Assembly: GCA_037446635.1 (NCBI GenBank)
Contig: JBBIIG010000009.1
Span: forward strand, 1-64,000
DNA: 64,000 nt
Source of the DNA: a bacterium
GTDB lineage: Bacteria > Zhuqueibacterota > Zhuqueibacteria > Oceanimicrobiales > Oceanimicrobiaceae
Direction of reading: 5' to 3'
A program made the translations under genes and the position numbers. A model generated the notes under the pieces. The model was not told the DNA's origin, made no database searches, and was given only the letters and a program-made list of their open reading frames with translations. How positions within the stretch are numbered: position 1 is the stretch's first letter; each line of letters starts with the position of its first letter. Shown here piece after piece: positions 1,231 to 60,306 of the stretch.

Positions 1231-1360
1231 AAAGCGCAGAGAGCATAGAGCAGAGCGTTTTAGAAGAGGTAGAGCGTGAGAGCGTAGAGCGTGGAGCGAC
1301 GACAATTCGCATTTGCACTCTTCGCTCTTTCGCTCTGCGCCATGCGCTATGCTCTCTGCT
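1231..1360. repeat. Heptamer-periodic imperfect inverted repeat (AGAGCGT-like / CGCTCT-like arms)
   Basis: Purine arm agagcatagagcagagcg...agagcgtgagagcgtagagcgtggagcg followed by complementary pyrimidine arm; related copy at 3789-3907. Confidence 0.75.
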
Positions 1361-3765
1361 CATTCATAGCGCAGCGCTTCAACCGGATTCGCCACTGCCG
1401 CCCGAATGGCCTGCGTGCTCACCGTCAGCAGCGCAATGAGCAGCGCAGATCCGCCGGCGAGCGCGAACACCCACCAGCCGATATCGATACGATAGGCGAA
1501 GTTATCGAGCCATTTGTTCATGGCGAACCAAGCCAGCGGCGTGGCGACCAACAAACCCAACAGCACGAGGCGGGTGAATTCCTTTGACAGCAGCATGACG
1601 ATGCTGGTAGTGGTGGCGCCCAAAACTTTGCGCACGCCGATCTCTTTTCGCCGCTGCTCGGTGGAATACGCCGCCATTCCGAACAATCCGAGACAGGCGA
1701 CAAAGATCGCCAGTCCCGCTGCGATGCAGAACAGAGTGCCAACACGCTGATCGTTGCGATAAAAATCTGCCAAACGCTCGTCGAGGAAATTGTATTCGAA
1801 TGGCGTAACTTGATCGAATTTCTCGTGAACGCTTTGCAGGTATTTGAGTGTGCCGGGGATATCCTCACCACTGATACGCACCGTGAAGTAGTCGATAGCG
1901 TCGATGCGGTTGTTCCAATTCGCCAAAACCAGCGGACCGATTTTTTCATGCAGCGATCGGAAATGAAAATCTCTGACCACGCCGATGACGCGCGCTTCAA
2001 AATTTTCTTCAGGCACGCGAATGGTTTTGCCGAGCGGCGAATCCCAACCAAACTCCTTGGCTGCGGTTTCATTGAGCAAAACGGCGCTGGTGTCGGTTCC
2101 AAATTCCGGCGAGAAATTTCGGCCTTCTGCCAGCTCAACCTCAAATACTTTCATGAAATCTTCATCAATGCCGATGAAATTCAAAGTATGAATCTCCGTT
2201 TCCGGCGCACCCTCCGGGACTACTCCCACTTCAGCGATGTTCTTCCAATCGCCAGGAACCCGCGAGCTCACCGATACGCCGTGCACTGCCGCGCTGCGTT
2301 TCATTTCCGTTTTGATCGCTTGAAAGTTTTTGCGAGCCACGCTGCTGTTGATGTCCACCACCACGAGTTGCTCCTCATTGAATCCGAGACGTTTGGTGCG
2401 GATGTAGTTCATCTGGTTGTACACTACCACCGTTGCGACGATCATCACAATCGAAAGCGCGAACTGCGTCACCACCAAGCCTTGCCGAAACCACGATGAG
2501 CTGGCGCCCGTGCCGCCTTTGAGAATGAACGCCGGCCGCAGCCGCGACAGAAAGAACGCCGGATAGCTGCCGGCAATCAATCCGACCAACAGCGCCATCG
2601 CCAAAAGTCCGATCGGCAGCCAATCAAGTTTCGCCACATCCAGCGCGAGCTGTTTTCCTGTGAACTGGTTGAACGTCGGCAGCAGTAACTCCACAGCGCC
2701 GCAAGCGACCACAAACGCGATGGCGGAGAACACCAGCGACTCACTTAAAAATTGGCCGACGAGCTGCAGTCGATACGCGCCCACCACTTTGCGCATGCCG
2801 ACTTCACGGGCGCGGCTTACCGAACGCGCCGTGGCAAGATTCATGTAATTAATGCACGCGATCACCACAATGAACAACGCGATGGCGGAGAAAATATAAA
2901 CGTACGCGATGTCGCCTTTATTTTCGTTGCGATCAAATTCGATGTGATTGGAATGAAAGTGGATGTCGCGCAGCGGCTGCAAATAGAAACGGCTGTCGTT
3001 GGCTGCCTCGCCGCGATACTGGCGATTGAATTCCGCCAGTTTGGTTTCCAACGTTGAGGCGGAGGCAGGATCGTTCAAAACCAAATAAGTGATGAAGCCG
3101 TCGGAATCCCAACGCTCGCTGAAACGACGCCAACCCTCTATCCCCTGCAAGGTGGCAAATGAAAACAACATGCTGAAATTCAAGTGCGAATTGGGCGGCG
3201 GGTCTTTGAGAACACCGGTGACTTTGAAATCACCAAAACGCTCGACTTTTATGGTCTGGCCGAATGCCTCTTCATCGCCGAAATATTTTTTCGCTGAGGT
3301 CTCGGTCAATACCACTGACATCGGCTCTCGCAACGCCGATGCGCGAGCGCCGCGCAGCAAGTCGAAATCGAAGACGTCGAGAAAATTGGTTTCGACGAAC
3401 AGGTGATCGCCTTCGTAAAAACGCGCGGCGCCATACTCAACAACGAAGCGGCCGGTGCTGAAACGGCTCATCGCTCGCACGAACGCTTCCACCTCCGGAA
3501 AGTCTTTTTTCAACGCCGGAGCCACCGGTCCCATCACTTGCGGAATATGGCGGTCGCCTTTGTCCGGCGACTTGCGGACATCGACGATTCGAAAAATGCG
3601 ATCCGCCTTTTTATGAAAGGCATCGAAATTCAACTCGTCGCGGACGTAAAGCAGGATCAACATGCAGCACGCCATGCCAATGGCCAGCCCGGCGATATTG
3701 ATGAACGAGTAGGCTTTGTTCTTCCAAATGTTTCTTGCGGCAATCTTGAGATAGTTTTTAAGCAT
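1360..3765 (-). CDS. MacB/FtsX-like ABC transporter permease (duplicated, ~800 aa)
   Basis: MLKNYLKIA start, REVGMRKVVGA and KEIGVRKVLGA motifs, NPVEALRYE end; start trimmed from 3798 to match paralogs. Confidence 0.93.
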   Translation of the reverse strand: MLKNYLKIAARNIWKNKAYSFINIAGLAIGMACCMLILLYVRDELNFDAFHKKADRIFRIVDVRKSPDKGDRHIPQVMGPVAPALKKDFPEVEAFVRAMSRFSTGRFVVEYGAARFYEGDHLFVETNFLDVFDFDLLRGARASALREPMSVVLTETSAKKYFGDEEAFGQTIKVERFGDFKVTGVLKDPPPNSHLNFSMLFSFATLQGIEGWRRFSERWDSDGFITYLVLNDPASASTLETKLAEFNRQYRGEAANDSRFYLQPLRDIHFHSNHIEFDRNENKGDIAYVYIFSAIALFIVVIACINYMNLATARSVSRAREVGMRKVVGAYRLQLVGQFLSESLVFSAIAFVVACGAVELLLPTFNQFTGKQLALDVAKLDWLPIGLLAMALLVGLIAGSYPAFFLSRLRPAFILKGGTGASSSWFRQGLVVTQFALSIVMIVATVVVYNQMNYIRTKRLGFNEEQLVVVDINSSVARKNFQAIKTEMKRSAAVHGVSVSSRVPGDWKNIAEVGVVPEGAPETEIHTLNFIGIDEDFMKVFEVELAEGRNFSPEFGTDTSAVLLNETAAKEFGWDSPLGKTIRVPEENFEARVIGVVRDFHFRSLHEKIGPLVLANWNNRIDAIDYFTVRISGEDIPGTLKYLQSVHEKFDQVTPFEYNFLDERLADFYRNDQRVGTLFCIAAGLAIFVACLGLFGMAAYSTEQRRKEIGVRKVLGATTTSIVMLLSKEFTRLVLLGLLVATPLAWFAMNKWLDNFAYRIDIGWWVFALAGGSALLIALLTVSTQAIRAAVANPVEALRYE

Positions 3766-3788
3766 TGTCAGTAGTCCGTTGTCAGTTA

Positions 3789-3907
3789 CAGAGCGCAAAG
3801 AGCAGAGCGCATAGCGTTTTAGAAGTCGTAAAGCGTAGAGCGAGAGAACGTAGAGCGTGGAGCGACGACAATTCGCATTTTACGCTCTTCGCTCTGCGCT
3901 TTGCTCA
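3789..3907. repeat. Heptamer-periodic inverted repeat, second copy
   Basis: Shares cgtagagcgtggagcgacgacaattcgcattt core with 1231-1360. Confidence 0.75.
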
Positions 3908-6310
3908 TTCATACCGCAACGCCTCCACCGGATTCGCAATCGCCGATTTTATGGCCTGATAGCTGACGGTCAGAATGGCGATCCCAATTGCGATCGCACC
4001 GGCGAACAGAAACGCCGCCGCGCTGATGTCGATGCGATAAGCAAAATCGTTCAACCATCTTCGCATGATCACAAAAGCGATCGGCCACGCGACAAGATTC
4101 GCAACCATCATCAACTTGATAAAATCAAAAGAGAAGGACATAAAGATATTTGGCACCGACGCGCCCAACACTTTGCGAATGCCGATTTCTTTGGTGCGCT
4201 GTTCCGCCGCAAACAATGCCATCCCGAATAATCCGAGACACGCGATGAGAATGGCCAACGTCGTGAAGTAAGCCACAATCTTGCCGAGCTGCGTCTCGAA
4301 TTTGTAAACGCTATCGAGGCGGTTGTCGAGAAAGAAAAAATCCATCGGACGAATCTTTTCGAATTGCCGCCACACGCTCTCGATTTGCGCCAGCGAATTG
4401 GAGAGCGTCGCGGTGTTGAGCCGCACGGAAATCAGCGGAAGGCCGAGATCAAACAAGCCGATCACCATTGGCTCAATGGATTCGTGCAGCGGTGCGAAGT
4501 GAAAATCTTTCACCACGCCGACGATCGGCCCGCGCACCGGGTTGCGGTCGCCGCTGGCGATCACCCGCCCCAGCACCGGCTCGATACCGTATTGCCGCAC
4601 CGCCGCTTCATTAACCAAATAGGCGAAGCTGGTATCGGTGGCAAACTCCTTTGAAAAATCGCGGCCGGCAGCCAGCTCCAGTCCGTAGGTTTTCGTATAG
4701 TCATGGCCGACGAAGTTGAAGGGCAGCGCGATTTTTTCTTCATCATTGATCGCGTTAAAATAGATCGAGCGGATGGGGAAACCTTCTCCCGTCACCCAGG
4801 CGTTCTTGGTGACGCTCATCACCTCGGGCAACTGCAGAAGCTGCGATTTGAACGTCTCGTAGTTTTGTTTGTCGGTCAGCGCCGTGCCGGTGGCTTTGAT
4901 CAACAGCATCTGCTCCTTCTCAAATCCCAATTTCTTTTTGCGAATGTATTCCAATTGTTGAGCGATAGTGACGATGGCGACGAGCAGGATCACCGTGATG
5001 GCCATTTGCGCCACCACCAAAGTTTTGCGCATATTAGCGCCAAGGCCCGATTTGGCAAACGATTTTTTGAGAGTGCGAACCGGTTGAAATGCGGAGAGGA
5101 AAATCGCCGGGTACAAACCGGAAATCACGCCCACGGCGACGGTCAATGCCAGCAGGCCCAGCAGAAGCAAAGAGTTTTCGAAATAACTGACGCGCAGTTG
5201 GATGATGGAAAGCTTGTTGAAAATGGCTGCCAATCCTTCGACCATTGCCAGCGCCAGCGTTACCGCCAGAAAGCTGACCAGCAACGATTCCACCAAAAAT
5301 TGCTTGATCAATTGCACGCGCTGAGCGCCCACCACTTTGCGTAGTCCCACCTCGCGGGCGCGATTGAGAGAACGGGCGGTGCTCAAGTTCATAAAATTGA
5401 TGCAGGCGATGATCAGCACCAGCACGGCGATCGCCGAAAAAATGTAGATGTACTGAATGTCGTTGTTGGGCTCGCATTCGTTTTCGAGATTGCCGCTCAG
5501 ATGAATGTCGCGCAGCCGCTGCAGAAACAGGCGTGAGCTTTGCCGAGTGCTGGGGAAATACTTTTTCACCAACTGCACGAGGCCCGCTTCCAACTCCCTG
5601 GGATCATAACCTTTGGGGAGTTTGATATACGTCCAAATTTGATAACCGAACCAACTGCGAAAGAAATCCGGATCCGGGGCGAGGGTTTCCGCGTGTTGAA
5701 ACCACGCCAACAGGTCGTATTTGAAATGGCTAGCCTCCGGGGCATTGCTCACAACGCCGGTGATTTTGTAGTCGATGTTTCTGCCGCGCAGATTTACGGT
5801 GACGGTTTCGCCCAACACCTCGAGGGTGTTGAAATATTTGCGCGCGATCTCTTCTGTCACCACCACGCTGTTCGGCTGGCTCAAGGCTGTGGCCGGATCG
5901 CCCCTCAAAAAAGGAATGGTGAAAATGTCAAACAGGCTGGCATCGGCAAAAAAGAAGCGCGGCTCGATGAACCGGCGATCGTCAATTTGAACCGCGGCAT
6001 CTTCGTTGTTGAAGCGAAAAATGCGCGCGGCCTGCTGCACTTGCGGATACTCGAGCAGCAGAACCTCCGCGGTCAAATACGAAACGCTGGCCTGCCCCTG
6101 TTTCTGACCGGTGGCGTCTTTCCAAATCGCCACACGATAAATTTGGTCCGCGTCGCGGTGGTGATCGTCATACCCAACCTCTTTGAGCACGTAAAGCAAA
6201 ATCAACATGCAGCACGCCATGCCGATGGCCAGCCCGGCGATGTTGATGAACGAGTAGGCTTTGTTCTTCCAAATGTTTCTCCCCGCGATCTTGAGATAAT
6301 TTTTAAACAT
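3905..6310 (-). CDS. MacB/FtsX-like ABC transporter permease (801 aa)
   Basis: Same architecture and motifs as the neighbouring permease. Confidence 0.93.
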   Translation of the reverse strand: MFKNYLKIAGRNIWKNKAYSFINIAGLAIGMACCMLILLYVLKEVGYDDHHRDADQIYRVAIWKDATGQKQGQASVSYLTAEVLLLEYPQVQQAARIFRFNNEDAAVQIDDRRFIEPRFFFADASLFDIFTIPFLRGDPATALSQPNSVVVTEEIARKYFNTLEVLGETVTVNLRGRNIDYKITGVVSNAPEASHFKYDLLAWFQHAETLAPDPDFFRSWFGYQIWTYIKLPKGYDPRELEAGLVQLVKKYFPSTRQSSRLFLQRLRDIHLSGNLENECEPNNDIQYIYIFSAIAVLVLIIACINFMNLSTARSLNRAREVGLRKVVGAQRVQLIKQFLVESLLVSFLAVTLALAMVEGLAAIFNKLSIIQLRVSYFENSLLLLGLLALTVAVGVISGLYPAIFLSAFQPVRTLKKSFAKSGLGANMRKTLVVAQMAITVILLVAIVTIAQQLEYIRKKKLGFEKEQMLLIKATGTALTDKQNYETFKSQLLQLPEVMSVTKNAWVTGEGFPIRSIYFNAINDEEKIALPFNFVGHDYTKTYGLELAAGRDFSKEFATDTSFAYLVNEAAVRQYGIEPVLGRVIASGDRNPVRGPIVGVVKDFHFAPLHESIEPMVIGLFDLGLPLISVRLNTATLSNSLAQIESVWRQFEKIRPMDFFFLDNRLDSVYKFETQLGKIVAYFTTLAILIACLGLFGMALFAAEQRTKEIGIRKVLGASVPNIFMSFSFDFIKLMMVANLVAWPIAFVIMRRWLNDFAYRIDISAAAFLFAGAIAIGIAILTVSYQAIKSAIANPVEALRYE

Positions 6311-6554
6311 GTCAGTTGTCCGTTGTTTGTTGTGAACTGTCCGTCGCGTCGTACAAAGCGTTTGTTAGCTAAGCACGATGTTATCTGCGCACTGCGTTTT
6401 TCACATTTGCCATTTGCCGTTTCCCGTTTAACGAGGAAGCCAATCAGGGCCGGCCGCAGCCAGCCCTGGTTTGGCTGTCCATTATTTATTGAGGGTCGCA
6501 CGCCGGCAATAAACTCAAAGATGAAAACAAAATGCTGACGGCTGAAAGCTATTC

Positions 6555-6569
6555 TCAAAATATATGCCA
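6555..6569 (-). promoter_or_regulatory. Possible sigma54-type -24/-12 promoter for the permease array
   Basis: Minus strand TGGCATATATTTTGA = GG-N10-GA, a variant of the GG-N10-GC consensus. Confidence 0.4.
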
Positions 6570-6984
6570 TGTAATGCCATGTCTGTTTTTAGACTATAAA
6601 TCGACGCCGCCAGCGCCGGAGAACTATCCGCTGACATTACACTCAGTGTACGAATGCGAACAACCCCGGGGGTGTCAGACGCTGCGATGACGTGAGACGG
6701 CAAAGGGCAGACGGCAGAAGTAATTGAAGGTTATTAACTCCGCTTCTCTAAGCGAAAGTAAATCTTCCCAAGCAAGAGTTTGGGGAATGTGGTTGCTGAA
6801 AAACTCAAATTTCTTTGATAGAAAATGGAACAAAACTTCTGAAGCGCGTTAATATGAAAAACCCCTTTCACAAAATTTGCGGTTCTTTCCGAAGCCCGCC
6901 CGCGCGGACTTTGAACGATGAGCAAAAGAGATTTTTCCAAAACTGAGTTTTTCAGCAACCTGTTTTAAAAAGAATGGAGAAAAC

Positions 6985-7650
6985 ATGATCAAACTCAACC
7001 ACATCACCAAATACTACAAAACCGGCGCCGGGCTCACCTATGTGCTGCGCGACATCAACCTCGTCGTCGAAGAAGGAGAGTTCATGACCATCATGGGGCC
7101 GTCGGGCTCCGGCAAGTCCACGCTGCTGCACATCCTCGGCATGTTGGACGATGCCTCGGACGGCGAATACTTTTTTTACGATCATCCCGTGCACCAGCTC
7201 AGCGAAAAGAAACGCTCGGAGTTGCATTCCACTCACATCGGCTTTGTGTTTCAGAGCTACCATTTGATCGATGAGCTGACGGTTTACGAAAATCTCGAAA
7301 CGCCGCTGCTCTACAAAAAAATCAAAGCGGCGGAGCGCAAGGGCATCGTCTCCGATACTCTCGACCGCTTCAACATCGTCGCCAAAAAAGATTTGTTCCC
7401 CAACCAATTGTCCGGCGGACACCAGCAGCTTGTGGGCGTAGCGCGCGCCATGATCACCCATCCCAGGCTCATCCTCGCGGACGAGCCCACCGGCAATCTC
7501 CACTCAAGTCAGGGGGAAGAAATTATGGAAATGTTCAAGAAACTGAATCAGCAGGGCGCCACCATCATTCAGGTGACGCATTCGGACAAGAACGCCGCGT
7601 ACGGCAATCGCATTATCAAACTATTTGATGGGCGGATTGTGAAGGAATAG
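6985..7650 (+). CDS. ABC transporter ATP-binding protein (LolD/MacB type)
   Basis: Walker [10 protein letters not shown], signature LSGGHQQ, Walker [15 protein letters not shown]; divergent from the permeases. Confidence 0.95.
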
Positions 7651-7653
7651 GGC

Positions 7654-8286
7654 TTACTTAATCAACAAACTCACCCGGCGGTTGGCCATCAATCCGCGGC
7701 GCTCCGGCGTTTCCTCCACTTTGAGGCGGGTGTCGGCGTAGCCCACCGCCATAAAGCGCTGGGCGCGGATGCCGTTGGCGAGCAGGCTGCGAATGACGCT
7801 GGACGAGCGCGCGGTGGAGAGTTCCCAGTTCGATGGGTAGAGAGAATTTTTGGCGAGCGGCACGCTGTCGGTGTGGCCCTCCACTTGAATTTTGCGCTCG
7901 CTCACGTCCGGCGCTTTCAGGATGTCCGCCAGCGCGTTCAGAATGGGAAAAGAGTTCGGTTTTAAATCCGCTTTCCCGGAATCGAACAAAATGTTGTCCT
8001 GAAAATTCACCAGCAGTCCATCCGGCGTCAACGAAACTTCCACGCTTTGCTGCAAGTTGTGCTGTTCCACCAGCTCTTTGAATTTCTTTTCGAGCTGATG
8101 CAGCGGCATGGTTTCACTTTTGGAAAAATATTCCATGATCATCTCGAACTTCACTTGATCGATTTGCGAGATGGAAAAGAACAGCACGAAGAACGCCAGC
8201 AGCAGGGTCACCATGTCGGCGTAGGACAGCAGCCAGGGCTGATCTTCTTTTTTGGTGTGATTTAATGCGGGTATCTTTATTTCCAT
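7654..8286 (-). CDS. motB: MotB/PomB-family stator subunit with OmpA-like peptidoglycan-binding domain
   Basis: WLLSYADMVTLLLAFFVLFFSIS transmembrane helix with the conserved Asp, plug-like QIDQVKF, LFDSGKA, VEGHTD, SNWELSTARS, NRRV; start set at ATG 8286 because the longer ORF runs into a repeat. Confidence 0.93.
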   Translation of the reverse strand: MEIKIPALNHTKKEDQPWLLSYADMVTLLLAFFVLFFSISQIDQVKFEMIMEYFSKSETMPLHQLEKKFKELVEQHNLQQSVEVSLTPDGLLVNFQDNILFDSGKADLKPNSFPILNALADILKAPDVSERKIQVEGHTDSVPLAKNSLYPSNWELSTARSSSVIRSLLANGIRAQRFMAVGYADTRLKVEETPERRGLMANRRVSLLIK

Positions 8287-8317
8287 TTTGCTTGTCGTGG
8301 TTTTGATTAGTTTGAAA

Positions 8318-8485
8318 ACTCGAATCTCGAATCTCAAAATCCAAAACAAATCCGAAATTCAAAATATCAAATGTCGAAATGCTTGTCTTGCAGTTTTTTT
8401 CTGCACAGGTTTTAAGATGATCTTGATTTTTGTTTTTTGAATTTGCTTCGAATTTCGCATTTCGAGTTTCGAATTTCGGATTTGC
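8318..8485. repeat. Heptamer-periodic inverted repeat (TCGAAAT/ATTTCGA family) between motA and motB
   Basis: ctcgaatctcgaatctcaaaatcc... and ...ttcgaatttcgcatttcgagtttcgaatttcggattt; related elements near 24400-24465 and 48925-49086. Confidence 0.75.
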
Positions 8486-8486
8486 C

Positions 8487-9314
8487 CTACCTCTGTATCA
8501 ATTCTTTCGCCGCTTTGCTGCGCATCCTTCCATTCGAGCCGGCCGCCAGCTTGTTGACTTTCTTGCGGCTGTTGGCGTTCAAATAAGCCGCCAGTTTGTC
8601 GCGGGCATAGACGTAGTTGCGGTTGTCGTACATCATCAAAATGGTTTCGAGCTGCATGGTTTCCAGCAGCAAGTTGTTTTCGGAGCGCTCGCGAATTTTT
8701 TCTGCGATGGGGACGAACACCATGTTGGCTAAAATCAAACCGTAAAAGGTCGTGGTCAGCGCTACCGCTAAACCGAGTCCTACCTGGCCGGGCTTGCTTT
8801 GCAGCGTGATGAGCATATCGATCAACCCGATCACCGTTCCCAACATTCCGAAGGCCGGCGCGATTTTCGCCATCACGCTGAACAACTGATTTTGCTTGGA
8901 CTCGCGGGTCATCTGCCAGCGAATTTGATCTTCTAAAATGGCTTGCGCTTCCGCTTTTGAATAGCCGTTGGCGAGCATCTGCACGCCGTCCTGCAAAATC
9001 CACAGCTTCTTAAGTTTCGGCAGCTCCCGCAGCAGATGATCGAGACCGTCGCGCTGGTAGGAGCGGATCGCCGCTACCATCTTATTGACCGCGCCGACGT
9101 AATCGTGCGAGCCCGATCGAAAAATAATGAAAAAGGCTTTGAACGCCTGCACCACTTCGCTGACGGGAAACGACACGAAGGTTGACGCGATGGTGCCGCC
9201 CAAAACGATGGCCATGCCCTGCCAATTGAGAAACACCTCCACCGGCGAGTTGCCGTTGATGATACCGTACGCAACCAGCGCACAGCCGATTAGAAATCCC
9301 AAGAAAGTTAACAT
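8487..9314 (-). CDS. motA: MotA/PomA-family stator subunit
   Basis: N-terminal IVLGGT hairpin typical of flagellar-type MotA, APAFGMLGTVIGLI, AVALTTTFYGLILANMVFVPIAEKI; 275 aa, four TM segments. Confidence 0.93.
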   Translation of the reverse strand: MLTFLGFLIGCALVAYGIINGNSPVEVFLNWQGMAIVLGGTIASTFVSFPVSEVVQAFKAFFIIFRSGSHDYVGAVNKMVAAIRSYQRDGLDHLLRELPKLKKLWILQDGVQMLANGYSKAEAQAILEDQIRWQMTRESKQNQLFSVMAKIAPAFGMLGTVIGLIDMLITLQSKPGQVGLGLAVALTTTFYGLILANMVFVPIAEKIRERSENNLLLETMQLETILMMYDNRNYVYARDKLAAYLNANSRKKVNKLAAGSNGRMRSKAAKELIQR

Positions 9315-9323
9315 CGTTTTTCC

Positions 9324-9989
9324 TTATTGTGAAGTTTTGTAGCGCGCGATGAGCTGGCGCACGTCCTCGAGATTCGGATTGATCTGGAGGGCGTTTTCCC
9401 AGGCCTGCACCGCCGATTCGATTTCGCCGTTCACAAAGTAGATGGAACCGCCCAAGGCGTACGCGGTGGCGGTTTGCTTTTTTTGCAGCGACGCTTGCAG
9501 CACGTTCAGGGCCTCGGCGTAGCGACGCTCATAAAACAGTTTCTGCGCTAAGTTGATGTCGCGGATGATCTCGTCGGTCAGCAGCTCGCCCTCCGAGTTG
9601 GAATTGGGTTTCGGGGGCGCTTTCGGTTCGTCGTCTTTTTTGTAGAGCACGGAGTCGCCTTTGGTCACCGACAGCACGCCGTCTTTGCCGCGCAGCAATT
9701 CCAAATCGAGGTTGGTGGAATTGGGATCGAGCGCCATCTCCACTTCGGTGTCGTTCTGCCGGAATTTTACCACTAAATACTGCTCGTCGGCTTTTGGCGA
9801 TTTAACCCGCGCCGATGAATCCGCCGCGACACGGTTTTCGGATCCATTCGGCGCGGCATCGCCTTCTTTCATCATCTGCCGATTGGCGGAACACGCCAGC
9901 GCCGCCAACCACAAGGTGGGAATGAGTAACGTGAGAGTCAGCCGGTTTATTTTTTTGCGACCGGCTGTTTTTCGATAATTATTTTTCAT
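9324..9989 (-). CDS. Predicted lipoprotein with C-terminal TPR repeats
   Basis: Basic N-terminus, hydrophobic core and LAALA-C lipobox-like site; TPR-like AYALGGSIYF...AVQAWENALQINP. Confidence 0.8.
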   Translation of the reverse strand: MKNNYRKTAGRKKINRLTLTLLIPTLWLAALACSANRQMMKEGDAAPNGSENRVAADSSARVKSPKADEQYLVVKFRQNDTEVEMALDPNSTNLDLELLRGKDGVLSVTKGDSVLYKKDDEPKAPPKPNSNSEGELLTDEIIRDINLAQKLFYERRYAEALNVLQASLQKKQTATAYALGGSIYFVNGEIESAVQAWENALQINPNLEDVRQLIARYKTSQ

Positions 9990-10018
9990 AAGCGCTTCCT
10001 AATTTTTAGCCTGAATAT

Positions 10019-10115
10019 TCACCACCGCAAGATTCGCTAAGAAGGCGAAAGGAGCGTAAGAGAAAAAATGTTTTTTAGCGGCCATTGCGCCAACTGTGCG
10101 TTCTTTGCGGTTAAA
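10019..10115. repeat. Nonamer-periodic imperfect inverted repeat (ACCGCAA...TTGCGGT family)
   Basis: accgcaagattcgctaagaaggcgaaagg ... ttagcggccattgcgccaactgtgcgttctttgcggtt; relatives near 34503-34570 and 54530-54565. Confidence 0.55.
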
Positions 10116-10147
10116 AATAGATTCATTTCTCTCTGCGGTTTAGTAAG

Positions 10148-11251
10148 TTAAAACGAAACCTGCAGCAGCATGAAATCAAAGTGCACGCCGTTGATTTGCG
10201 CGCGCAACGATTCGCCAATGGCTTCCACAATTTGGGAATCGAATTCGGGTCCGAGAATCATCGACATGCCGGCGGAAACCGAAAACCGCGAGCTGAGATC
10301 GGAACGCAAGCCCACGCCGATGCCGGTCAAATCCGGCATGTTGAGGGTGAAGTAGCGCGTCACCGACAAGTAAAACGCCAGCCAGTCGCCGTAGCGGTTT
10401 TCTTTGTCTTGAATCATCGTGGTGTGCAGCAGCGCGCGGAAGTTGTACGACACCGGCAGAAATTGTCCCAACTGATGCTGCGCGTAAAAAGCGTTTTTGG
10501 CGAATTCCGTGTTGTTGAGCCGCACGCCGTCGGAGAGAAACGACACCCCGGCCCGCAATTCATAGCGCACGCGGCTGCTGGCGCTGAGATACTGGTAGAT
10601 GCCGAAGTACGCCGAATATTGCACCAGCCGGTTGTTGAAATCCGCGTGCAGAAGCGAATCGCCGGGCGCGTCGAATTCGATGGGAAATATTTCGAGGCCG
10701 GCGTGAAACGTGCGGCGCAAGGGATTCGAAGTTTGCACTTTGAAGTCCTTCTCATAAGCCGAATAGGATTTCGCCCACAACACTTCGTTGGTGCCGGTGC
10801 GGTTGAGGCGCAGATCGAGATACATGGCTTTGCCGCGCACGTAGGTGAGGTTGCCTTCCACGAAGGCGTCCACGCGCAGCCGGCGGCCCACGCGCCACAA
10901 TTCATCCGGCGAGGGCAGCGCATTACGAATGGAGAAGCTGCTGTCCGACGACGAAATTTTCAGCGTGTTCAAATCCGGCAGCGACACCATCGCCGGGCGA
11001 TCCAGCGTGCGGAAAATTTCCAGAAGCCGGTTTTGAAAATGCGTCCGCAGCGCCGGCGCCACGATGGTTTCGTCCACGTTGATGCGGTAAATAGCGATGC
11101 GCTGGAGCTCGGGATCGATCTCCGTCAAATCTTTGGGAATCTGTGTGAAAATATCCTGCATCAAATTGAGGATGGTTTCGTTGGCGCTCTGCGCGAAAAC
11201 CGTCGAACACAACGCCAGTAAAAGTACAACGGACAAATGAATTCGTTTCAT
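10148..11251 (-). CDS. Secreted/outer-membrane protein: CsgG/FlgO/TolB-N-like N-domain plus probable beta-barrel
   Basis: Signal peptide (VFA^QS); VGRRLRVDAFVEGNL...LDLRLNRTGTNEVLWAKSY pattern; amphipathic beta-strands in the C-half; terminal Phe (LLQVSF). Confidence 0.6.
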   Translation of the reverse strand: MKRIHLSVVLLLALCSTVFAQSANETILNLMQDIFTQIPKDLTEIDPELQRIAIYRINVDETIVAPALRTHFQNRLLEIFRTLDRPAMVSLPDLNTLKISSSDSSFSIRNALPSPDELWRVGRRLRVDAFVEGNLTYVRGKAMYLDLRLNRTGTNEVLWAKSYSAYEKDFKVQTSNPLRRTFHAGLEIFPIEFDAPGDSLLHADFNNRLVQYSAYFGIYQYLSASSRVRYELRAGVSFLSDGVRLNNTEFAKNAFYAQHQLGQFLPVSYNFRALLHTTMIQDKENRYGDWLAFYLSVTRYFTLNMPDLTGIGVGLRSDLSSRFSVSAGMSMILGPEFDSQIVEAIGESLRAQINGVHFDFMLLQVSF

Positions 11252-11266
11252 AGCGATGCCTTCCCT

Positions 11267-13093
11267 TTATGCAATGAATGATTTTTTCCGGCGCAGCGTT
11301 CGCATCAGCGTGCGGCGCGCTTCGTTCACTTCTGTTTCGGAAATATGACGATGCGATTCGAGGCTGGCGCGCACCATCTCCGCCAATTTCGGCGGCAGCG
11401 ATTGAATGATGCGTTCGACCGTCGCCCGATCCAGCGTTACCAGCGATTTCGCCAGCGTCTCGCGGTCCACTTCCAGAGCGGCCTGGCGCAGTTTGTCCCG
11501 CGACGACGACAGCAGTTGCTGGAAGGTCATGAAGCGGCGGCTGACTTTTTCGGCCAGCGCTAAATTTTGAGTTTGCAGATACGCCAGCGTCTCTTCCTGG
11601 GTGGTTTCGTCGAGTTGTTCCAGCACGCTCACCATGGCATCGACGCCGTTGGCGCGGACGTGGCGCATGGTTTTCAATTCATTGGCGCGCGTCGCTAATT
11701 GCCGCGCGATGTGCTGATAAACATCCGACGGGATGCGTTCGAGATTAGCCATGGCCGCCAGCACGCTTTTGCGCTCCGCCGCCTCCAGCGTGTTCAAAAA
11801 TTTAGCGGCGCGCTCGGTTTGGAGCTGCGCCAACACGATGGCCATCACGCCGGTCTTCAAGGGTTTGAGCAAATGGAACAACTGCTCGTCGTTCATCTGC
11901 TGCAAAAACGAGAGCGCGTCGCCGTCGCGGTCGTATTTTTCCCGCAGCAATTGCTGGCGAATTTCCTCATCAAATTTTTTGAGCAGCGCCGGCGACTCTT
12001 TTTCAGTGGCGGCCGGCGGTAACTGGCTCATGATTTTTTGCACCGCGGCCGTGTTATCTTCGCCAAGATACGGCTCCAGCAAATCCAGCAGCGATTTTGA
12101 GATGCTGGCGATCACCACCGCCGTCTCGCGCTGGCCGGTTTCGCCGCGCTCGGAGATCCAACCGCTGAGCACTTTGGCGCTGGCGCCCGGCATCCCCACG
12201 ATCACGTCGATGGTGCGGGCTTTCAATTCTTCGGTGTGATTGACGTTATGAGCGGCGCCGTTGCCATTCGTCGGCGCCGGCAGTTTGATTTCTTTGCCCC
12301 GCAGGTCCGTCTCCGATACATTTTTCATGGGCGCGGCTGTTTTCGCCGGCGCGGTTTTTTCCGATCCTCTCAGACGACTGACGATCTTGTGCATTCCCAG
12401 CAGATAGAGCGTGATCAGCAGGGTCGCTAATCCAGCCGCGAAATAATAAGGAAACCAGTTCGACTGGGTTTCTGGCGGCAGAGTCTGCGCTGGCGTCGCC
12501 GGCGGAGGCGGGACCTCGGCCGCTTTGGGCGGATCTTCTACTTTAGGCGCGATAAAATTCGCTTTCTCCGGAAAATCCATTCCTTCGATGCGCACTTGAT
12601 CGCCGCGGCTCCCTTCGAGGTTGGCGGTGAGGTTTACAAAGCGGCGGATGAACGACCAGTCGTTTTGCGACAGACTGTTGTCCACCAACACCGTCACGCG
12701 AATCTGCGCCACCTCGTAACGGTTTTCATTGACCTGCTGCAGCAGACTAAAATCGTCTCGCGGATCCGATTTCGCTTCCGCCAGGTCTTGCGGCAGATAG
12801 GGCAGGCCGGGAAGGTTCGTCAGGTCTTTGCTAAGCAGGGCATCCGGCAGCTTGGGCAGAATTTTTCGCGGTTCCACTTTGCGCAACTGCACTTTGGCGT
12901 TAACCACGAATTTGGTTTCCGGATAATAGAGCAGCAGCGCGTTTTGCAAATTCCAGTTCAAGTTGGCTTCCATCGAGCGTTCCAGCTCGTGCATGGATTT
13001 GTCCGAGCTAAAATCTTGCGCCCGCAAAATTGGGCTCAGCGCCAGACCAGCCAGAGCTGAAACGAGCACAGTGAGATTGAAAATTGTTTTCAT
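11267..13093 (-). CDS. FliF(RBM3)-TM-FliG fusion protein (candidate rotor ring)
   Basis: Signal peptide; IRVTVLVD...RGDQVRIEGMDF (FliF C-terminal ring motif); TM at aa ~213-235; P-x-x-S-A-K-V-L-x-x-W helix like the FliF C-terminus; FliG-M-like aa ~392-467; FliG-C-like aa ~482-602 (NGVDAMVSVL, LAEKVSRRFMTF, EVNEARR). Confidence 0.82.
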   Translation of the reverse strand: MKTIFNLTVLVSALAGLALSPILRAQDFSSDKSMHELERSMEANLNWNLQNALLLYYPETKFVVNAKVQLRKVEPRKILPKLPDALLSKDLTNLPGLPYLPQDLAEAKSDPRDDFSLLQQVNENRYEVAQIRVTVLVDNSLSQNDWSFIRRFVNLTANLEGSRGDQVRIEGMDFPEKANFIAPKVEDPPKAAEVPPPPATPAQTLPPETQSNWFPYYFAAGLATLLITLYLLGMHKIVSRLRGSEKTAPAKTAAPMKNVSETDLRGKEIKLPAPTNGNGAAHNVNHTEELKARTIDVIVGMPGASAKVLSGWISERGETGQRETAVVIASISKSLLDLLEPYLGEDNTAAVQKIMSQLPPAATEKESPALLKKFDEEIRQQLLREKYDRDGDALSFLQQMNDEQLFHLLKPLKTGVMAIVLAQLQTERAAKFLNTLEAAERKSVLAAMANLERIPSDVYQHIARQLATRANELKTMRHVRANGVDAMVSVLEQLDETTQEETLAYLQTQNLALAEKVSRRFMTFQQLLSSSRDKLRQAALEVDRETLAKSLVTLDRATVERIIQSLPPKLAEMVRASLESHRHISETEVNEARRTLMRTLRRKKSFIA

Positions 13094-13226
13094 GGGGTGC
13101 GCTTCTTCCTTGATTTCGTTTTGCTGAATTATGATTTAATCATCGGATAGCAGGTGAGAAATCTTGAACGAAAATGATCGTCTAAAAACATCTTGCAAAA
13201 TCTAATTCCTTCTCCCCAAAAATTCT

Positions 13227-13255
13227 TTGACACATCACCCCAAACTTTGTATATT
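13227..13255 (+). promoter_or_regulatory. sigma70 promoter for deaminase-coaE-comEC
   Basis: TTGACA-17 nt-TATATT. Confidence 0.7.
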
Positions 13256-13323
13256 TCCGGCAATTCAGTAATCCCGGTCTGCGCACGCAGCCACCAATCC
13301 ATCATCCGCATTAATCAGGAGAC

Positions 13324-13797
13324 GTGATGCTTGACGAAATCTTCATGCGCCTCGCCATCGAAAAAGCCCGCGAGGGAATGAAAAAAGGACAATCCCCATT
13401 CGGCGCCGCCGTCGTTAAAAACGGCGAGGTGATTAGCTGCGTTCATAACGTTGTGTGGCAAACCACGGACATCACCGCCCACGCGGAGGTGCATGCCATT
13501 CGCGAGGCCTGCAAAAAATTGGGGACGATTGATTTGTCGGGATGCGTGATTTACTCCACCTGCGAGCCGTGCCCCATGTGCTTCAGCGCCATTCACTGGG
13601 CGAACATTTCGAAAATTGTTTTCGGCGCGCGCATCGCCGACGCCCACGACGGCGGCTTCCGCGAGCTGACCATCTCCAACGAGCAGATGAAAAAATTGGG
13701 CGGCAGTCCGGTGGAGATCGTCGCGGGATTTTTGAAAGAAGAAAATGTCGCCCTATTCGAAGAGTGGCGGAGTTTGGAAAACCGAAGAGTCTATTGA
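13324..13797 (+). CDS. Nucleoside/guanine deaminase (cytidine deaminase fold)
   Basis: HAE and CEPCPMC zinc motifs; PFGA; SAIHWA resembles Bacillus-type GuaD. Confidence 0.88.
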   Translation: MMLDEIFMRLAIEKAREGMKKGQSPFGAAVVKNGEVISCVHNVVWQTTDITAHAEVHAIREACKKLGTIDLSGCVIYSTCEPCPMCFSAIHWANISKIVFGARIADAHDGGFRELTISNEQMKKLGGSPVEIVAGFLKEENVALFEEWRSLENRRVY

Positions 13798-18831: not shown

Positions 18832-20088
18832 GTGCATAGAAATTATCAAAAAGCGATGGTTCGCGCGGGAATGGTTTTGAGTTTATTTTTGCTTCACGGT
18901 TTGGCGCGGAGCTGGTTATTGGAGAACCAAGATGGCCGCACGCCCCATGAAACCATCATCTATCTTTACAAACAACTGCAAGACAGCCTGAACGCCGACT
19001 CCGCCGCAAACCATCTCGAAAAGAATATTCTAAACATCGTCAACGAGCTTTTTGATGTTGAACGGCTGGCGCCGCAAGTTCTGCAGCAGCGCTGGACCGA
19101 GGCCGCGGCCATCGAGCAGCAGCGGGTCGTGGAAGCGATGAAACTATCTCTTGCCCGAGACATCCTGCGGCAGATTGACAAATACAAGGGCGTAAAAAAC
19201 CTGCCGACGTTAACGCTGATTTCGTTTTTTTTTAATGATAGGGTGTCCACCTTGAACTACACGGTTAGCGACGGCCAGCGCAAAATCAAGTTCACCGTTT
19301 TCATGATTCAATACACCGAGGGCGCGTGGAAAATCAGCAACCTCAAGTATGACGATGACAGCATCGTGCGTCATTATTACAGCATCTGCAAAAAAATAAT
19401 CGACAAGTATTCGCTTTCGAGCCTGATCGCTGAGTTGTCAGGCCAGGATTATGTGGTTTTGGAAGACTTTGAATCTTCGGAAGTAGGCGGCCTGCCGCAG
19501 GGCTGGAACTGGAAAAAGCAGGATGATGCAAAAAACAAACCCTATCAAGTTCGCGAAGAGAACGGCAATCAATATCTTGCGGCTGAAGACCGCGGCGAGT
19601 CGGTTATTTTAGGTAAAGACATCAAATGGGATTTAAAAACCTACCCCTACATCTCTTTCAAATGGCGTGCCCATCATATTCCCACAGGCGGCGATGAACG
19701 CTTTGGCAGAACGGTTGACAGCGCCGCCGGCATTTACATCATTTATAATAAAAAATTAGGCTTGATTCCGGAATCGGTTAAGTATGTTTGGAGCTCCACC
19801 CTGCCAGTGGGTTCGGCCATGCGCCGCAGCGGCACCGGGCGGCCGTGGATGGTGGTGGCCGACAGCGGCGACCAGAACTTGGGCGAGTGGCGAACCTATG
19901 TTTTCGACGCCCGCGAAGCTTACAGAAAAACCTTCGGCGGCGCGCCCCCCGATACCCCCATTGCCATCGGCATCCTCTCCGACGCCAACTCCACGAACTC
20001 CAAGGCGTTTGCCGACTACGACGATATTATCGCGTTGAAAAATGCCAATGCCGACTCCGGCATCAAGGAATTCTTAAAAGCTGAATAA
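18832..20088 (+). CDS. MlaC-like N-domain fused to a DUF3047-like domain
   Basis: FDVERLAPQVLQQRW...WKISNL (MlaC-like); KWRA, D..A.IY, KYVWS, GILSDANST (DUF3047-like); GTG start. Confidence 0.65.
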   Translation: MHRNYQKAMVRAGMVLSLFLLHGLARSWLLENQDGRTPHETIIYLYKQLQDSLNADSAANHLEKNILNIVNELFDVERLAPQVLQQRWTEAAAIEQQRVVEAMKLSLARDILRQIDKYKGVKNLPTLTLISFFFNDRVSTLNYTVSDGQRKIKFTVFMIQYTEGAWKISNLKYDDDSIVRHYYSICKKIIDKYSLSSLIAELSGQDYVVLEDFESSEVGGLPQGWNWKKQDDAKNKPYQVREENGNQYLAAEDRGESVILGKDIKWDLKTYPYISFKWRAHHIPTGGDERFGRTVDSAAGIYIIYNKKLGLIPESVKYVWSSTLPVGSAMRRSGTGRPWMVVADSGDQNLGEWRTYVFDAREAYRKTFGGAPPDTPIAIGILSDANSTNSKAFADYDDIIALKNANADSGIKEFLKAE

Positions 20089-20103
20089 GTCGAAAGGAAC
20101 GGA

Positions 20104-21480
20104 ATGGTTACTCGAGCCATTTTCGTGATTGCTGCAATGCTGTTGTGTATTCCCTCAAAAGGTTTCGTGCAGAATAATTCCCTGATTTTGGATCTGAAAA
20201 AATGTGAAGAGCTGGCTTGGCAAAATAATCTTTCCATCCACGACGCCGAATTAAGTCTGGATATTTCGCAAGCGAAGTTAACCCAGGCCTCCCACGCCCG
20301 CTTCCTGCCAAAATTTGAATTGCGAAATATTTGGGGGCCGAGTCCGCCGGCGCGTTTGGGGGAACTCGGACCGCACGGCGGCTTCGTGGTCTCGCCGGAC
20401 ACCGCGGTCGGGTTTGGGGATTTGCGGTACTTCACCCAGTTGGATATCGATTTGGTGCAACCCATTTTCACCTTTGGGAAATTGAGCGGCGCCGCTGCCG
20501 CCGCGCGCGCCGGCGTAGAAGCCGATGAAGCCAATTTAGAAAGCGAAAAAGAAAACGTGCGCCTGCAGGTGCGCCAACTTTACTGGGGGCTGGTTTTGGC
20601 CAAAGAACTGCTGCTGGTAGTGGAGGATGCCGACAAAGAGTTGGTCAAAGCCGAGAACAAAATTCAGGAAAAATTGCAGGAAGGCTCCGAGGAGGTTTCT
20701 CAGGTGGATTTGTTCAAGCTGCAAATTTTCAGGTATGAAATCAACAAGCGCCGGCGCGAGGCGTTGGATAATGTTAAAATCACCCGTTCGGCGTTGAAGG
20801 CCAGTCTCGGGCTGGCGGATGATCTTGAGATTCAAGTGGCGTCCGGATATCTCGACCCGCTGCCGACGCAAGTGGACAGTTTATCAACCTATCTCGAGAT
20901 GGCGCTGCAGAACCGCCCCGAGCTGCGCCGCCTGCGCGCCGGCATTCAAGCGCGTAGCGCACTGGTGACGGTTTCCAAAAGCGATTACTTTCCGCAATTC
21001 TTTTTGGGCGGCCAAATCAAATTCAACTATGCCAAAGATCGTTTCGACACCAATAATCCTTTTTTGTTTAACCAGACGAATTACTTTCGCCCCGGCGTGG
21101 TGGTGGGCGCCAGCTTGAATCTCAATTTTCTGCAAACCCGCGATAAAGTTCGCGTGGCGCAGGCCGAATTTTTGCAGCTTTCCCAAAAAGAAAAGCAATT
21201 GTTGGAGGGCATAAAATTGGACGTGCAAAAAAACTATTTGGAATTAACCCAGGTTGAACAGAACATGCTCGATAGCGAACGGGCGCTGAAAGCCACCGAC
21301 AATTGGCTGCGCTCGGTTACCATGACTTTTGATATCGGCGTCGGCGAAGTCAAAGAATTGATCGACGCCTTCCGCGCCAACGGCGCCATGCAGGCGGAAC
21401 ATCTGCAGAATATTTTCAAATACAACGTCGCCATCGCCAAATTAAGCAAATCAGTTGGACGGGATCTCTATCCCAATTAA
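20104..21480 (+). CDS. TolC-family outer membrane efflux protein
   Basis: Signal peptide, QPIFTFGK, ALQNRPEL, repeated OEP halves. Confidence 0.9.
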   Translation: MVTRAIFVIAAMLLCIPSKGFVQNNSLILDLKKCEELAWQNNLSIHDAELSLDISQAKLTQASHARFLPKFELRNIWGPSPPARLGELGPHGGFVVSPDTAVGFGDLRYFTQLDIDLVQPIFTFGKLSGAAAAARAGVEADEANLESEKENVRLQVRQLYWGLVLAKELLLVVEDADKELVKAENKIQEKLQEGSEEVSQVDLFKLQIFRYEINKRRREALDNVKITRSALKASLGLADDLEIQVASGYLDPLPTQVDSLSTYLEMALQNRPELRRLRAGIQARSALVTVSKSDYFPQFFLGGQIKFNYAKDRFDTNNPFLFNQTNYFRPGVVVGASLNLNFLQTRDKVRVAQAEFLQLSQKEKQLLEGIKLDVQKNYLELTQVEQNMLDSERALKATDNWLRSVTMTFDIGVGEVKELIDAFRANGAMQAEHLQNIFKYNVAIAKLSKSVGRDLYPN

Positions 21481-21498
21481 CGAAAGGGAAATCATAAA

Positions 21499-22089
21499 AT
21501 GAGAACGGCTAATCTAATGATCATAATGGCCATCCTGGCTTCTGCTCTTTTTCAATTCACTTTTGCCAATGATAACTCGCCGCTGGCAATTGTGAAAGCC
21601 CGCAACCAGAGCATCGATGGTATTTTAAAAACGGCGGGCGAGCCAGTTAGTCCGGAAACCAAAGAGAAACTCAAGCAGGTCATCAACGAATTTATGGATT
21701 TCAACGAGCTCTCCCGGCTGGCGCTGGGCAAATATTGGGAGCAACGAACCGAACAAGAGAAGAAGGATTTCGTCAACGTTTTTTCCAGTTTGATTAAAAA
21801 CTCCTCTGTGAAGAAGCTCGAAATTTACAAAGCCGATCGCCTGGCTTATAAGGAACCGGTGATCACCGGCGACAAAGCCACGGTCACCACGGTTGCATAC
21901 AAAGATCGCAAACATGTTGAGATTGTTTACAAGATGCACCTCGTAAACGGTCAGTGGCTGGTGTACGATATGGAGATCGATGGCGTGAGCACTGCCATCA
22001 ATTACCGTGATTCATTTTATAAAGAGATCGCCAAAACCTCGTACCAGGAAATGTACAAGAAGTTAGAAAAAAGATTAAATGAAGAATGA
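21499..22089 (+). CDS. MlaC/Ttg2D-family lipid-binding protein
   Basis: DFNELSRLALGKYW, WLVYDMEIDGVS...NYR. Confidence 0.9.
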   Translation: MRTANLMIIMAILASALFQFTFANDNSPLAIVKARNQSIDGILKTAGEPVSPETKEKLKQVINEFMDFNELSRLALGKYWEQRTEQEKKDFVNVFSSLIKNSSVKKLEIYKADRLAYKEPVITGDKATVTTVAYKDRKHVEIVYKMHLVNGQWLVYDMEIDGVSTAINYRDSFYKEIAKTSYQEMYKKLEKRLNEE

Positions 22090-60295: not shown

Positions 60296-60306
60296 AGGTT
60301 TCTCCT

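Follow-up and report, generated by a model that had tools for sequence, protein, structure and literature searches.

To our knowledge, torque generation by FliG and MotAB is known only inside flagella. Engineered Vibrio FliF-FliG fusions are reported to form rings in membranes, and their S-ring has been solved (PMC10941966, PMC11481574); engineered Salmonella FliF-FliG fusions are reported to support flagellar assembly and rotation (PMC4768692). The latter source also describes a natural FliF-FliG fusion of the Chlamydiaceae, which measures about 330 amino acids (aa) and consists of RBM2, one RBM-like domain and a FliG_M-like region (Bergeron 2016, PMC4768692); it comes with no MotAB, it was proposed to work with the injectisome, and its hosts are not thought to be flagellated. 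MotAB homologues have been sorted into flagellar and generic classes, with no FliG-linked non-flagellar system mentioned in the excerpts of that source (PMC12505986). Here, we analyzed a five-gene cassette at positions 7654-13093 of a 64,000-nucleotide stretch of DNA (the window, i.e., positions 1 to 64,000 of the forward strand of contig JBBIIG010000009.1, assembly GCA_037446635.1) from a bacterium of the family Oceanimicrobiaceae (Zhuqueibacterota). Our results support the view that this cassette, which encodes a predicted FliF-FliG fusion, two envelope proteins and a MotA/MotB pair, is the flagellar rotor-stator core re-used without a flagellum.

A first-pass annotation of this DNA had placed five co-oriented genes at 7654-13093, and all five were recovered as minus-strand open reading frames (ORFs) at these coordinates, with only the start of MotB corrected:

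11267..13093, minus strand, gene of the 608-aa FliF(RBM3)-FliG fusion (ORF list, Pfam, phmmer, AlphaFold2, Foldseek, VIA-align)
10148..11251, minus strand, gene of the 367-aa outer-membrane-type protein (ORF list, structure model)
9324..9989, minus strand, gene of the 221-aa TPR lipoprotein (ORF list, Pfam)
8487..9314, minus strand, gene of the 275-aa MotA/PomA-type stator A subunit (ORF list, Pfam, NCBIfam, phmmer)
7654..8349, minus strand, MotB-type stator B gene, ORF as listed (TTG start at 8349), 231 aa
7654..8286, minus strand, MotB gene from the proposed ATG at 8286, about 210 aa (orthologue lengths and sequence)

The genes are separated by 15, 158 and 9 nucleotides (nt), followed by 137 nt (TTG start) or 200 nt (ATG start) between motA and motB. 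As MotB orthologues measure 210-214 aa, compared to 231 aa from the TTG at 8349, the true MotB start is probably the ATG at 8286.

The FliG-like character of the 608-aa protein was evident from Pfam matches to FliG_C (PF01706; 51.3 bits, cut-off 23.3) and FliG_M (PF14841; 40.9 bits, cut-off 25), in addition to MgtE_N (32.7 bits). Its residues 394-603 aligned to T. maritima FliG (E 1e-15, phmmer) and residues 374-602 to the flagellar FliG of a KSB1 relative of the same family (96.4%, E 1.3e-9, hhalign). The score for YscJ_FliF_C (PF08345), at 23.7 bits, was just below the cut-off of 23.8, and 11 of 38 homologues of the fusion carry a precomputed PF08345 match. An AlphaFold2 model built from 30 sequences (predicted local distance difference test score, pLDDT, 71.9) showed an N-terminal part consisting of a hydrophobic helix, an alpha(34-54)-beta(62-72) unit, a low-confidence loop (77-115) and a beta(126-138)-alpha(143-157)-beta(166-172) unit; the transmembrane (TM) helix follows at 214-241, and beyond a linker predicted to be disordered, residues 279-607 are entirely helical. 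The predicted parts of the protein map to the window as follows:

12569..13003, minus strand, periplasmic RBM3-like domain of the fusion, aa 31-175 (VIA-align, borderline Pfam)
12371..12454, minus strand, single TM helix of the fusion, aa 214-241 (model helix and conserved hydrophobic stretch in the ortholog alignment)
11273..12151, minus strand, cytoplasmic FliG-like part of the fusion, aa 315-607 (VIA-align, hhalign), with the FliG_C torque-helix domain at aa 523-607

When the modelled domain at aa 31-175 was compared to known structures, FliF S-ring/RBM3 chains (Salmonella residues 230-438, Vibrio residues 258-452; 23-24% identity) were matched with VIA-align Z scores of 13.0-14.6 and a root-mean-square deviation (rmsd) of 1.6-2.6 Å over 93-105 residues, compared to Z scores of only 8-9 for the next-best folds (OsmC/Ohr, EscJ, SpoIIIAG and PrgK). 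The cytoplasmic part (aa 315-607) matched full-length FliG (chain residues 4-322; Z 12.1-15.3), and aa 523-607 matched the FliG_C that is bound to MotAB in 8ucs (Z 12.7, rmsd 2.0 Å, 85/88 residues). Foldseek agreed with both the FliG and the FliF matches of the model. Structure 8z4d was among the phmmer and VIA-align matches of the fusion. Overall, the modelling indicates that the periplasmic domain of the fusion is a FliF RBM3 by fold, with borderline sequence similarity, and the FliF-FliG homology proposed earlier for the 608-aa protein is borne out by the hhalign match on the FliG side and the Z scores on the FliF side.

Conservation within the wider protein family, assessed on 135 representatives, was strongest in the periplasmic part at an LPGLP motif in loop 77-115, with P95 kept in 133/135 and G96 in 134/135 representatives, and an RGD precedes the last RBM3-like strand, its D being kept in all 135. 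This loop, which follows the first alpha-beta unit, sits at what we take to be the place (in Salmonella numbering) where FliF carries its beta-collar. FliF RBM1/RBM2 (YscJ_FliF, PF01514) had no Pfam match on the fusion or anywhere in the genome, and the periplasmic part of the model has room for one domain only. In the cytoplasmic part, the hinge motif MFVF of T. maritima FliG aligns to FMTF of the fusion. The FliM-binding motif EHPQ is not kept, as the 'EHPQT' of T. maritima aligns to 'KPLKTG'; the E of this motif is retained in 116 of the 135 representatives, not in the KSB1 branch.

The stator genes are of flagellar type. MotA matched MotA_ExbB in Pfam (91 bits). Its best NCBIfam models were MotP (139 bits) and PomA (136 bits), both under the equivalog cut-offs (341-394 bits); TolQ reached only 21.2 bits (cut-off 221) and ExbB 16.4 bits (cut-off 135). 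Full-length phmmer matches to solved MotA/PomA were obtained at E 8e-29 to 1e-25 (residues 2-262 at E 8e-29). A quick tree placed the cassette MotA with the flagellar MotA of relatives and separated it from the TolQ/ExbB paralogues of the genome by a long branch with 100% SH-aLRT support; the tree does not resolve a single clade of cassette proteins distinct from the flagellar ones. Sequence comparison thus assigns the cassette MotA to the flagellar type rather than to the TolQ/ExbB type. MotB matched MotB_plug (66.8 bits) and OmpA (64.7 bits) in Pfam and scored 145-168 bits, under the cut-offs, with the NCBIfam MotD/MotS/MotB models; its TM helix carries the channel Asp in YADMVTLL, and an Asp motif was found in 36 of 41 homologues. 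The protein is thus predicted to combine a plug, a channel Asp and an OmpA-like peptidoglycan-binding domain.

The two remaining cassette genes encode predicted envelope proteins. The 367-aa protein matched no Pfam or NCBIfam family, and neither did 12 of its distant homologues, except for sub-threshold OMP_b-brl matches in two. The protein starts with a signal peptide, and its model (pLDDT 77.4) shows an LpoB/TolB-N-like alpha/beta domain (aa 29-167) followed by a barrel of 8 strands (aa 175-367). Its last residue is F, as it is in 38 of 42 homologues, the remaining 4 having L. The N-terminal domain matched the LpoB C-domain (VIA-align Z 9.8, rmsd 3.1 Å, 124 residues) and TolB (Foldseek E 5e-6), and the barrel matched OprF-N, NspA, OmpA and OmpW with Z scores of 12-13.7 (OprF 13.7, NspA 13.5). 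The 221-aa protein has TPR repeats at aa 144-216 (Pfam TPR_2 31.6, TPR_1 28.5, TPR_21 25.7 bits) and a Cys at residue 33 after the hydrophobic stretch of its signal peptide; a strict lipobox pattern was found in 29 of 45 homologues, and most of the others show, by eye, a Cys after a hydrophobic stretch. Pfam and model matches therefore agree with the identities first given to these two proteins, as they do for MotA and MotB.

We then asked whether the host has a flagellum to which the cassette could belong. Its assembly (4.64 Mb, 110 contigs, 97.3% complete) holds only one FliG_C match, the cassette's own, and a scan of this genome returned no FlhA, flagellin, YscJ_FliF, Flg_bb_rod rod/hook motif or signalling domain of methyl-accepting chemotaxis proteins (MCPs). 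We also searched the host genome (tblastn, E<=1e-5) with the 40 ORFs of a 35-kb flagellar cluster from G022, a relative in the same family; by Pfam, this cluster comprises FlgF/G-type rod proteins, a sigma factor, FlhF, FlhA, FlhB, FliR/Q/P/O/N/L, MotB, MotA, FlgE, FlgD and FliK/J/I/H/G/F/E. No match in the host genome was found for 27 of the 40 ORFs, including FlhA/B, FliP/Q/R/O/N/L, FlgE, FlgF/G and FliK/J/H/G/F/E. The 13 matching ORFs were generic (sigma factor, signal recognition particle GTPase, HD domains, ATP-synthase-type ATPase, OmpA domain, immunoglobulin (Ig)-like domain, regulators) and included the G022 MotA, which hit the cassette's own MotA at 29%. Within the window, none of the 47 other ORFs scanned with Pfam belongs to a flagellar family, as the first-pass annotation had stated. 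The only flagellar-sounding matches outside the cassette were FlgD_ig Ig-like domains that end FG-GAP proteins; three FG-GAP repeat proteins lie at 58562-62042, two with a terminal FlgD_ig, and they are not flagellar FlgD.

Across a phylum sample of 151 genomes, the fusion gene was present in 22 and FlhA in 56; FlhA occurred in 14 of the 22 fusion carriers (absent in 8) and in 42 of the 129 non-carriers. In five flagellated carriers, we found a second FliG (about 340 aa), a FliF (512-528 aa) and a second MotA (29-33% identity), and these canonical proteins are encoded in the flagellar cluster, on another contig than the cassette. The whole-genome search that had been proposed for flagellar genes thus found no such gene set in the host, and the flagellated relatives own their fliF, fliG and motA. 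Of five FlhA-less carriers, three (G013, G074 and G132; 99, 94 and 96% complete, respectively) have only the cassette FliG_C and no flagellin, one (G048) has a second FliG and one (G113) has a weak flagellin-like match. The cassette is therefore a separate module that coexists with flagella in many lineages and is intact without flagella elsewhere.

Relatives of the cassette were located by a profile search of species-representative genomes with an alignment of 30 orthologs of the fusion (invariant-rich, 58% mean column identity), as a single-protein query found none. Of 19 such loci, 15 hold the five genes arranged as in the window, with identities of 41-76%, and the other 4 end at a contig edge; the record titles of these loci name KSB1, Calditrichaeota, Calditrichaceae, 'Bacteroidetes' and 'Cytophagia'. 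When the ORFs of the window and 12 loci were clustered, exactly the five cassette genes and no flanking gene were common to all 13 sources, the next clusters being antisense ORFs in at most 5 sources; as only the cassette genes are shared, chance is far from sufficient to explain the five-gene arrangement. When 1.84 billion cluster representatives were searched with a profile, 163 matched at E<=1e-30, nearly all of them 560-730 aa long and matching end to end. For metagenomes, a narrower alignment was used, as an alignment of 50 distant members was too divergent. Among the 41 metagenome loci thus obtained (23-30% identity to the window), 25 show fusion, barrel, TPR, MotA and MotB genes in this order; the remaining 16 are either truncated at a contig end or have one weakly conserved member with no tblastn-detectable match, and a different gene order was seen in none of the 41. 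The carriers are named on their records as KSB1, as Calditrichaeota- or Bacteroidota-labelled metagenome-assembled genomes and as Fibrobacterota, with the ESM Atlas taxa Balneolota, Bdellovibrionota, Pseudomonadota and Elusimicrobiota serving as leads only. Members of about 600 aa currently bear the names 'flagellar motor switch protein FliG' or 'FliG C-terminal domain-containing protein', which mislead at the very least in genomes whose search for flagellar genes came up empty. An absence of conserved synteny in other genomes, which the first-pass annotation had named as a refutation, was thus not seen; the cassette is, however, not confined to non-flagellated lineages, as the distribution of FlhA among its carriers indicates.

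We also compared the charged residues of the flagellar stator-rotor contact with their counterparts in the FliG-like part and MotA of the cassette. The torque helix of the fusion has K569, A576 and S577 where T. maritima FliG has R, D and E, respectively (phmmer alignment). K569 aligns to the R of T. maritima 'SKRAA', corresponds to E. coli FliG R281, and is R or K in 127 of 135 representatives. On the stator side, 'QRDGLDHLLRE' of the window MotA aligns to 'RREGLLSLED' of a solved MotA, both classical charge positions being uncharged; in E. coli, the classical charges are the acidic pair D288/D289 of FliG and R90 and E98 of MotA, as given in a passage of PMC12505986. We compared 43 distinct loci, scoring the MotA position three residues before the conserved G, i.e., the first R of 'RREG' in solved MotA. 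All 18 loci with K/R at this position have D/E at FliG-like positions 576/577, and none of the 25 loci lacking K/R there has D/E at 576/577; the residue at 577 is E in 18 of the 43 loci, which belong to clades other than KSB1. To judge from these alignments, such a coupled charge change is what a conserved flagellum-like contact would give. As a separate observation, the ordinary flagellar FliG of this phylum, as read from that of relative G022 (L081:3935-4963), seemingly has Q instead of R at the basic position of the torque helix ('SQQASEALKEEIE'; hhalign output, by eye), with the acidic pair kept.

Overall, we consider it probable (roughly 0.6) that the cassette encodes an ion-driven rotor-stator machine that stands alone, likely forms a ring, needs no flagellum and directs its output at the envelope. 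The fusion would be exported via its signal peptide and held by one TM helix; its RBM3-like domains would assemble laterally into a periplasmic ring in the manner of FliF RBM3, and this ring would set a ring of FliG-like domains beneath the inner membrane. MotA5B2 units, tied to the peptidoglycan by the OmpA-like domain of MotB, would pass ions by way of the conserved Asp, turn, and push on the FliG_C-like torque helix, so that the ring rotates. As RBM1/RBM2, and with them an export gate, are missing and a rod is absent too, the load is probably periplasmic and could be taken where the LPGLP loop meets the barrel protein (at its LpoB/TolB-N-like domain), the TPR lipoprotein, or the two together; another possibility is that the lipoprotein scaffolds the stator. 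Surface movement, envelope remodelling and transport are candidate outputs. We infer rotation and outer-membrane coupling of this machine, and the most specific version of the proposal, a free-standing rotary envelope engine in which an RBM3/FliG ring is spun by a private MotAB and passes torque to the barrel protein and the lipoprotein, with no secretion gate and no axle, is offered tentatively, at somewhat under an even chance.

Several observations weigh against a stand-alone rotary machine. Sequence homology between the periplasmic domain and FliF is weak; as hhalign against one canonical FliF returned a probability of 2% (E 0.025, 50 columns), the FliF assignment rests on fold and not on sequence, the YscJ_FliF_C score being just under the Pfam cut-off, and we infer ring formation solely from this likeness of fold. 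In the window and all 16 KSB1-type loci, the acidic-pair positions hold A576/S577, with Q or H at the corresponding place in MotA, and the MotA position aligned to the E of 'LSLE' in the solved protein is likewise non-acidic. With the charge positions of both rotor and stator replaced, the textbook electrostatic interface is not kept in the KSB1 branch, in which E572 is invariant and an R is usual one position later in MotA; judging from these residues, the MotA-FliG contact of this branch must be built differently. The charge coupling also follows clades and may reflect one or two events only. The presence of FlhA in 14 of 22 carriers leaves some link to flagella possible. Moreover, a same-genus genome (G140, 74% complete) has FlhA, and a flagellar contig could therefore be missing from the host assembly; as MCPs are missing too, an unassembled flagellar part is the less likely explanation. 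Flagella seem to have been lost very recently in the host lineage, or part of the genome was not binned.

Among the explanations that compete with a rotary machine, the main rival is a non-rotary force transducer of the Tol-Pal/TonB type, in which MotAB would do conformational work on the fusion, and the fusion would reach the outer membrane via the barrel protein and the TPR lipoprotein, for outer-membrane tethering, constriction or integrity. We regard this as unlikely, yet as the alternative most worth keeping in mind. The match of the N-domain of the 367-aa protein to TolB (E 5e-6) and LpoB (Z 9.8), the presence of a TPR protein, as with CpoB in Tol-Pal, the OmpA-like peptidoglycan-binding domain of MotB and the KSB1 branch's lack of classical torque-interface charges would all suit it. 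It is harder to reconcile with a periplasmic domain that is specifically RBM3-like, well above other folds, as RBM3 builds rings, with a MotA that scores 139 bits for MotP compared to 21 for TolQ and stands apart from the TolQ/ExbB of the genome in the tree, and with the charge coupling in other clades, which fits a gear-type interface. In addition, the host genome holds a separate tolQ-tolR plus a TonB/TolA-like locus, identified by eye with no family scan. Improbable, in our view, is that the cassette represents an accessory or alternative rotor-stator module of an ordinary flagellum, persisting as a decaying leftover in flagellum-less genomes. The higher frequency of FlhA in carriers (14/22, compared to 42/129 in non-carriers) and the FlhA of same-genus genome G140 speak for it, but the cassette was never found within a flagellar cluster, the five flagellated carriers own FliF, FliG and MotA on other contigs, and the genes are intact in at least four high-quality genomes that have no FlhA, canonical FliG or flagellin. 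Decay is also not apparent in the five ORFs, which are open here, or in the 30 orthologues with their 58% mean column identity, and the FliM-binding EHPQ motif is replaced by KPLKTG.

That MotAB and the FliG-like domain serve signalling, in a membrane device that senses or regulates, for example, envelope stress or ion-motive force, appears highly improbable: kinase, GGDEF, PilZ and receiver domains were not found in the five proteins (Pfam, NCBIfam) and two outer-membrane-type partners are conserved across wide distances, against which stands the fact that the operon offers no load or output protein that can be named and no enzyme. Least credible of all is a Zorya-like anti-phage system built on a MotAB-type channel. 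MotB matched ZorB models at 39-68 bits, as is expected for any MotB, but no PADLOC model matched MotA or the other three proteins, no ZorC/ZorD-like or nuclease gene is present, and the flanks are housekeeping genes; as PADLOC gave only these generic ZorB matches on MotB, a Zorya identity was rejected.

The cassette is bounded by unrelated genes, as had been noted earlier, and contains one unusual spacer:

6985-7650, plus strand, ABC ATPase gene, flank of the cassette
13324-13797, plus strand, cytidine/dCMP-type deaminase gene, flank of the cassette
8287..8486, minus strand, motA-motB spacer, 200 nt, AT-rich, with a long imperfect hairpin

The RNA fold of this spacer has a predicted energy of -50.9 kcal/mol (z -4.5), and none of 200 shuffles folds as well. 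Spacers between motA and motB in relatives measure at most about 60 nt, and the 200-nt hairpin spacer is absent there. A repeated mobile element was ruled out, as the hairpin is present in a single copy in the genome; an insertion is conceivable, as is a role in processing or stability within the operon. A scan of 7400-13500 for sigma-70 promoters and terminators gave counts not above those of shuffles. Among sequencing runs, no RNA run containing the sequence was found, and the best DNA runs shared 0.29 of the sampled words. Elsewhere in the window, two MacB-type permeases of about 800 aa (MacB_PCD and FtsX; 1360-7650) on the minus strand converge on the plus-strand ABC ATPase; this neighbourhood adjoins the cassette and is not conserved in relatives. 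An unusual lipid-transport-like trio at 18832-22089 consists of an MlaC-DUF3047 fusion, an outer-membrane efflux (OEP) protein and a second MlaC in succession. A 463-aa ORF at 32608-33999 joins QueG (epoxyqueuosine reductase) domains to a C-terminal nucleotidyltransferase (NTase) domain and is possibly the product of two genes joined by read-through; 2 kb away, a HEPN protein (29968-30360) suggests a HEPN-NTase pair.

No description of the cassette was found in the full-text literature, a scope that excludes subscription journals and supplements, which agrees with the initial impression that the system was not a described one. The terms flagell-, motil-, gliding, pili and MotA are absent from PMC11683472, a paper on this phylum; such a fusion is not mentioned in the excerpts of PMC13277936 and PMC12505986; and the MotA entries of a Fibrobacter proteome paper are of the ExbB/ExbD type (PMC6851124). 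New here are the cross-tabulation with flagella in the phylum, the coupled charge change and the loss of the classical interface charges in the KSB1 branch. If the proposed machine exists, it would join the flagellum, ATP synthase and the type 9 motor as another rotary machine of bacteria, spread over several phyla. It would represent either the flagellar motor core put to a second use or a surviving form of this core from before its union with a secretion system. A torque-generating core (S-ring domain, FliG and stator) kept with its export gate, rod and filament replaced by two envelope proteins would show that this core is usable for another job; it would also offer a much simpler system for studies of stator-rotor coupling and would bear on how the rotor-stator pair and the secretion system met in flagellar evolution.

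Among known systems, the Tol-Pal system, composed of TolQRA, TolB, Pal and the TPR protein CpoB, resembles the cassette in that one operon combines a MotAB-family channel and a transducer anchored in the inner membrane with a TPR protein, a TolB-N-like domain and an OmpA-like peptidoglycan binder. In the cassette, however, MotA is of the flagellar type, the transducer is FliF/FliG-like rather than TolA and the TolB-N-like domain is fused to an outer-membrane barrel. PflA/PflB, MotX/MotY and FlgP/FlgO/FlgT are stator scaffolds of high-torque flagellar motors and decorate a complete flagellum. They are similar to the cassette in placing TPR and outer-membrane-associated proteins around a rotor to position MotB-type stators, but no sequence or fold match of the cassette proteins to them was obtained here.

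The likeness to the flagellar motor core extends over the predicted RBM3 fold, in which the first alpha-beta unit is likewise followed by an insertion, and over the complete N/M/C series of FliG-like domains. It also includes MotA, which is of flagellar type, and MotB with its plug, channel Asp and OmpA-like domain. The cassette differs in having one polypeptide where the flagellum has separate FliF and FliG, in a cleavable-looking signal peptide in place of TM1 of FliF, in the absence of RBM1/RBM2 and hence of an export-gate housing, in the lack of the EHPQ motif, and in the A/S replacement of the torque-helix acidic pair in the KSB1 branch; in the host genome, no FliM/FliN, type III secretion system, rod, hook or filament genes were found. 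The cassette adds two partners unknown from flagella, the TPR lipoprotein and the barrel protein with its LpoB-like domain. Like the Chlamydiaceae protein, its fusion is a natural joining of a shortened FliF to a FliG-like domain in bacteria not considered flagellated, but the former, as described, is set apart by having RBM2 plus one RBM-like domain, with FliG_M only and no MotAB. With the engineered Salmonella and Vibrio proteins, the cassette shares the covalent joining of FliF to FliG; those are laboratory constructs with full-length FliF in a normal flagellum, whereas the fusion of the cassette is natural, cut to RBM3 and accompanied by a private stator.

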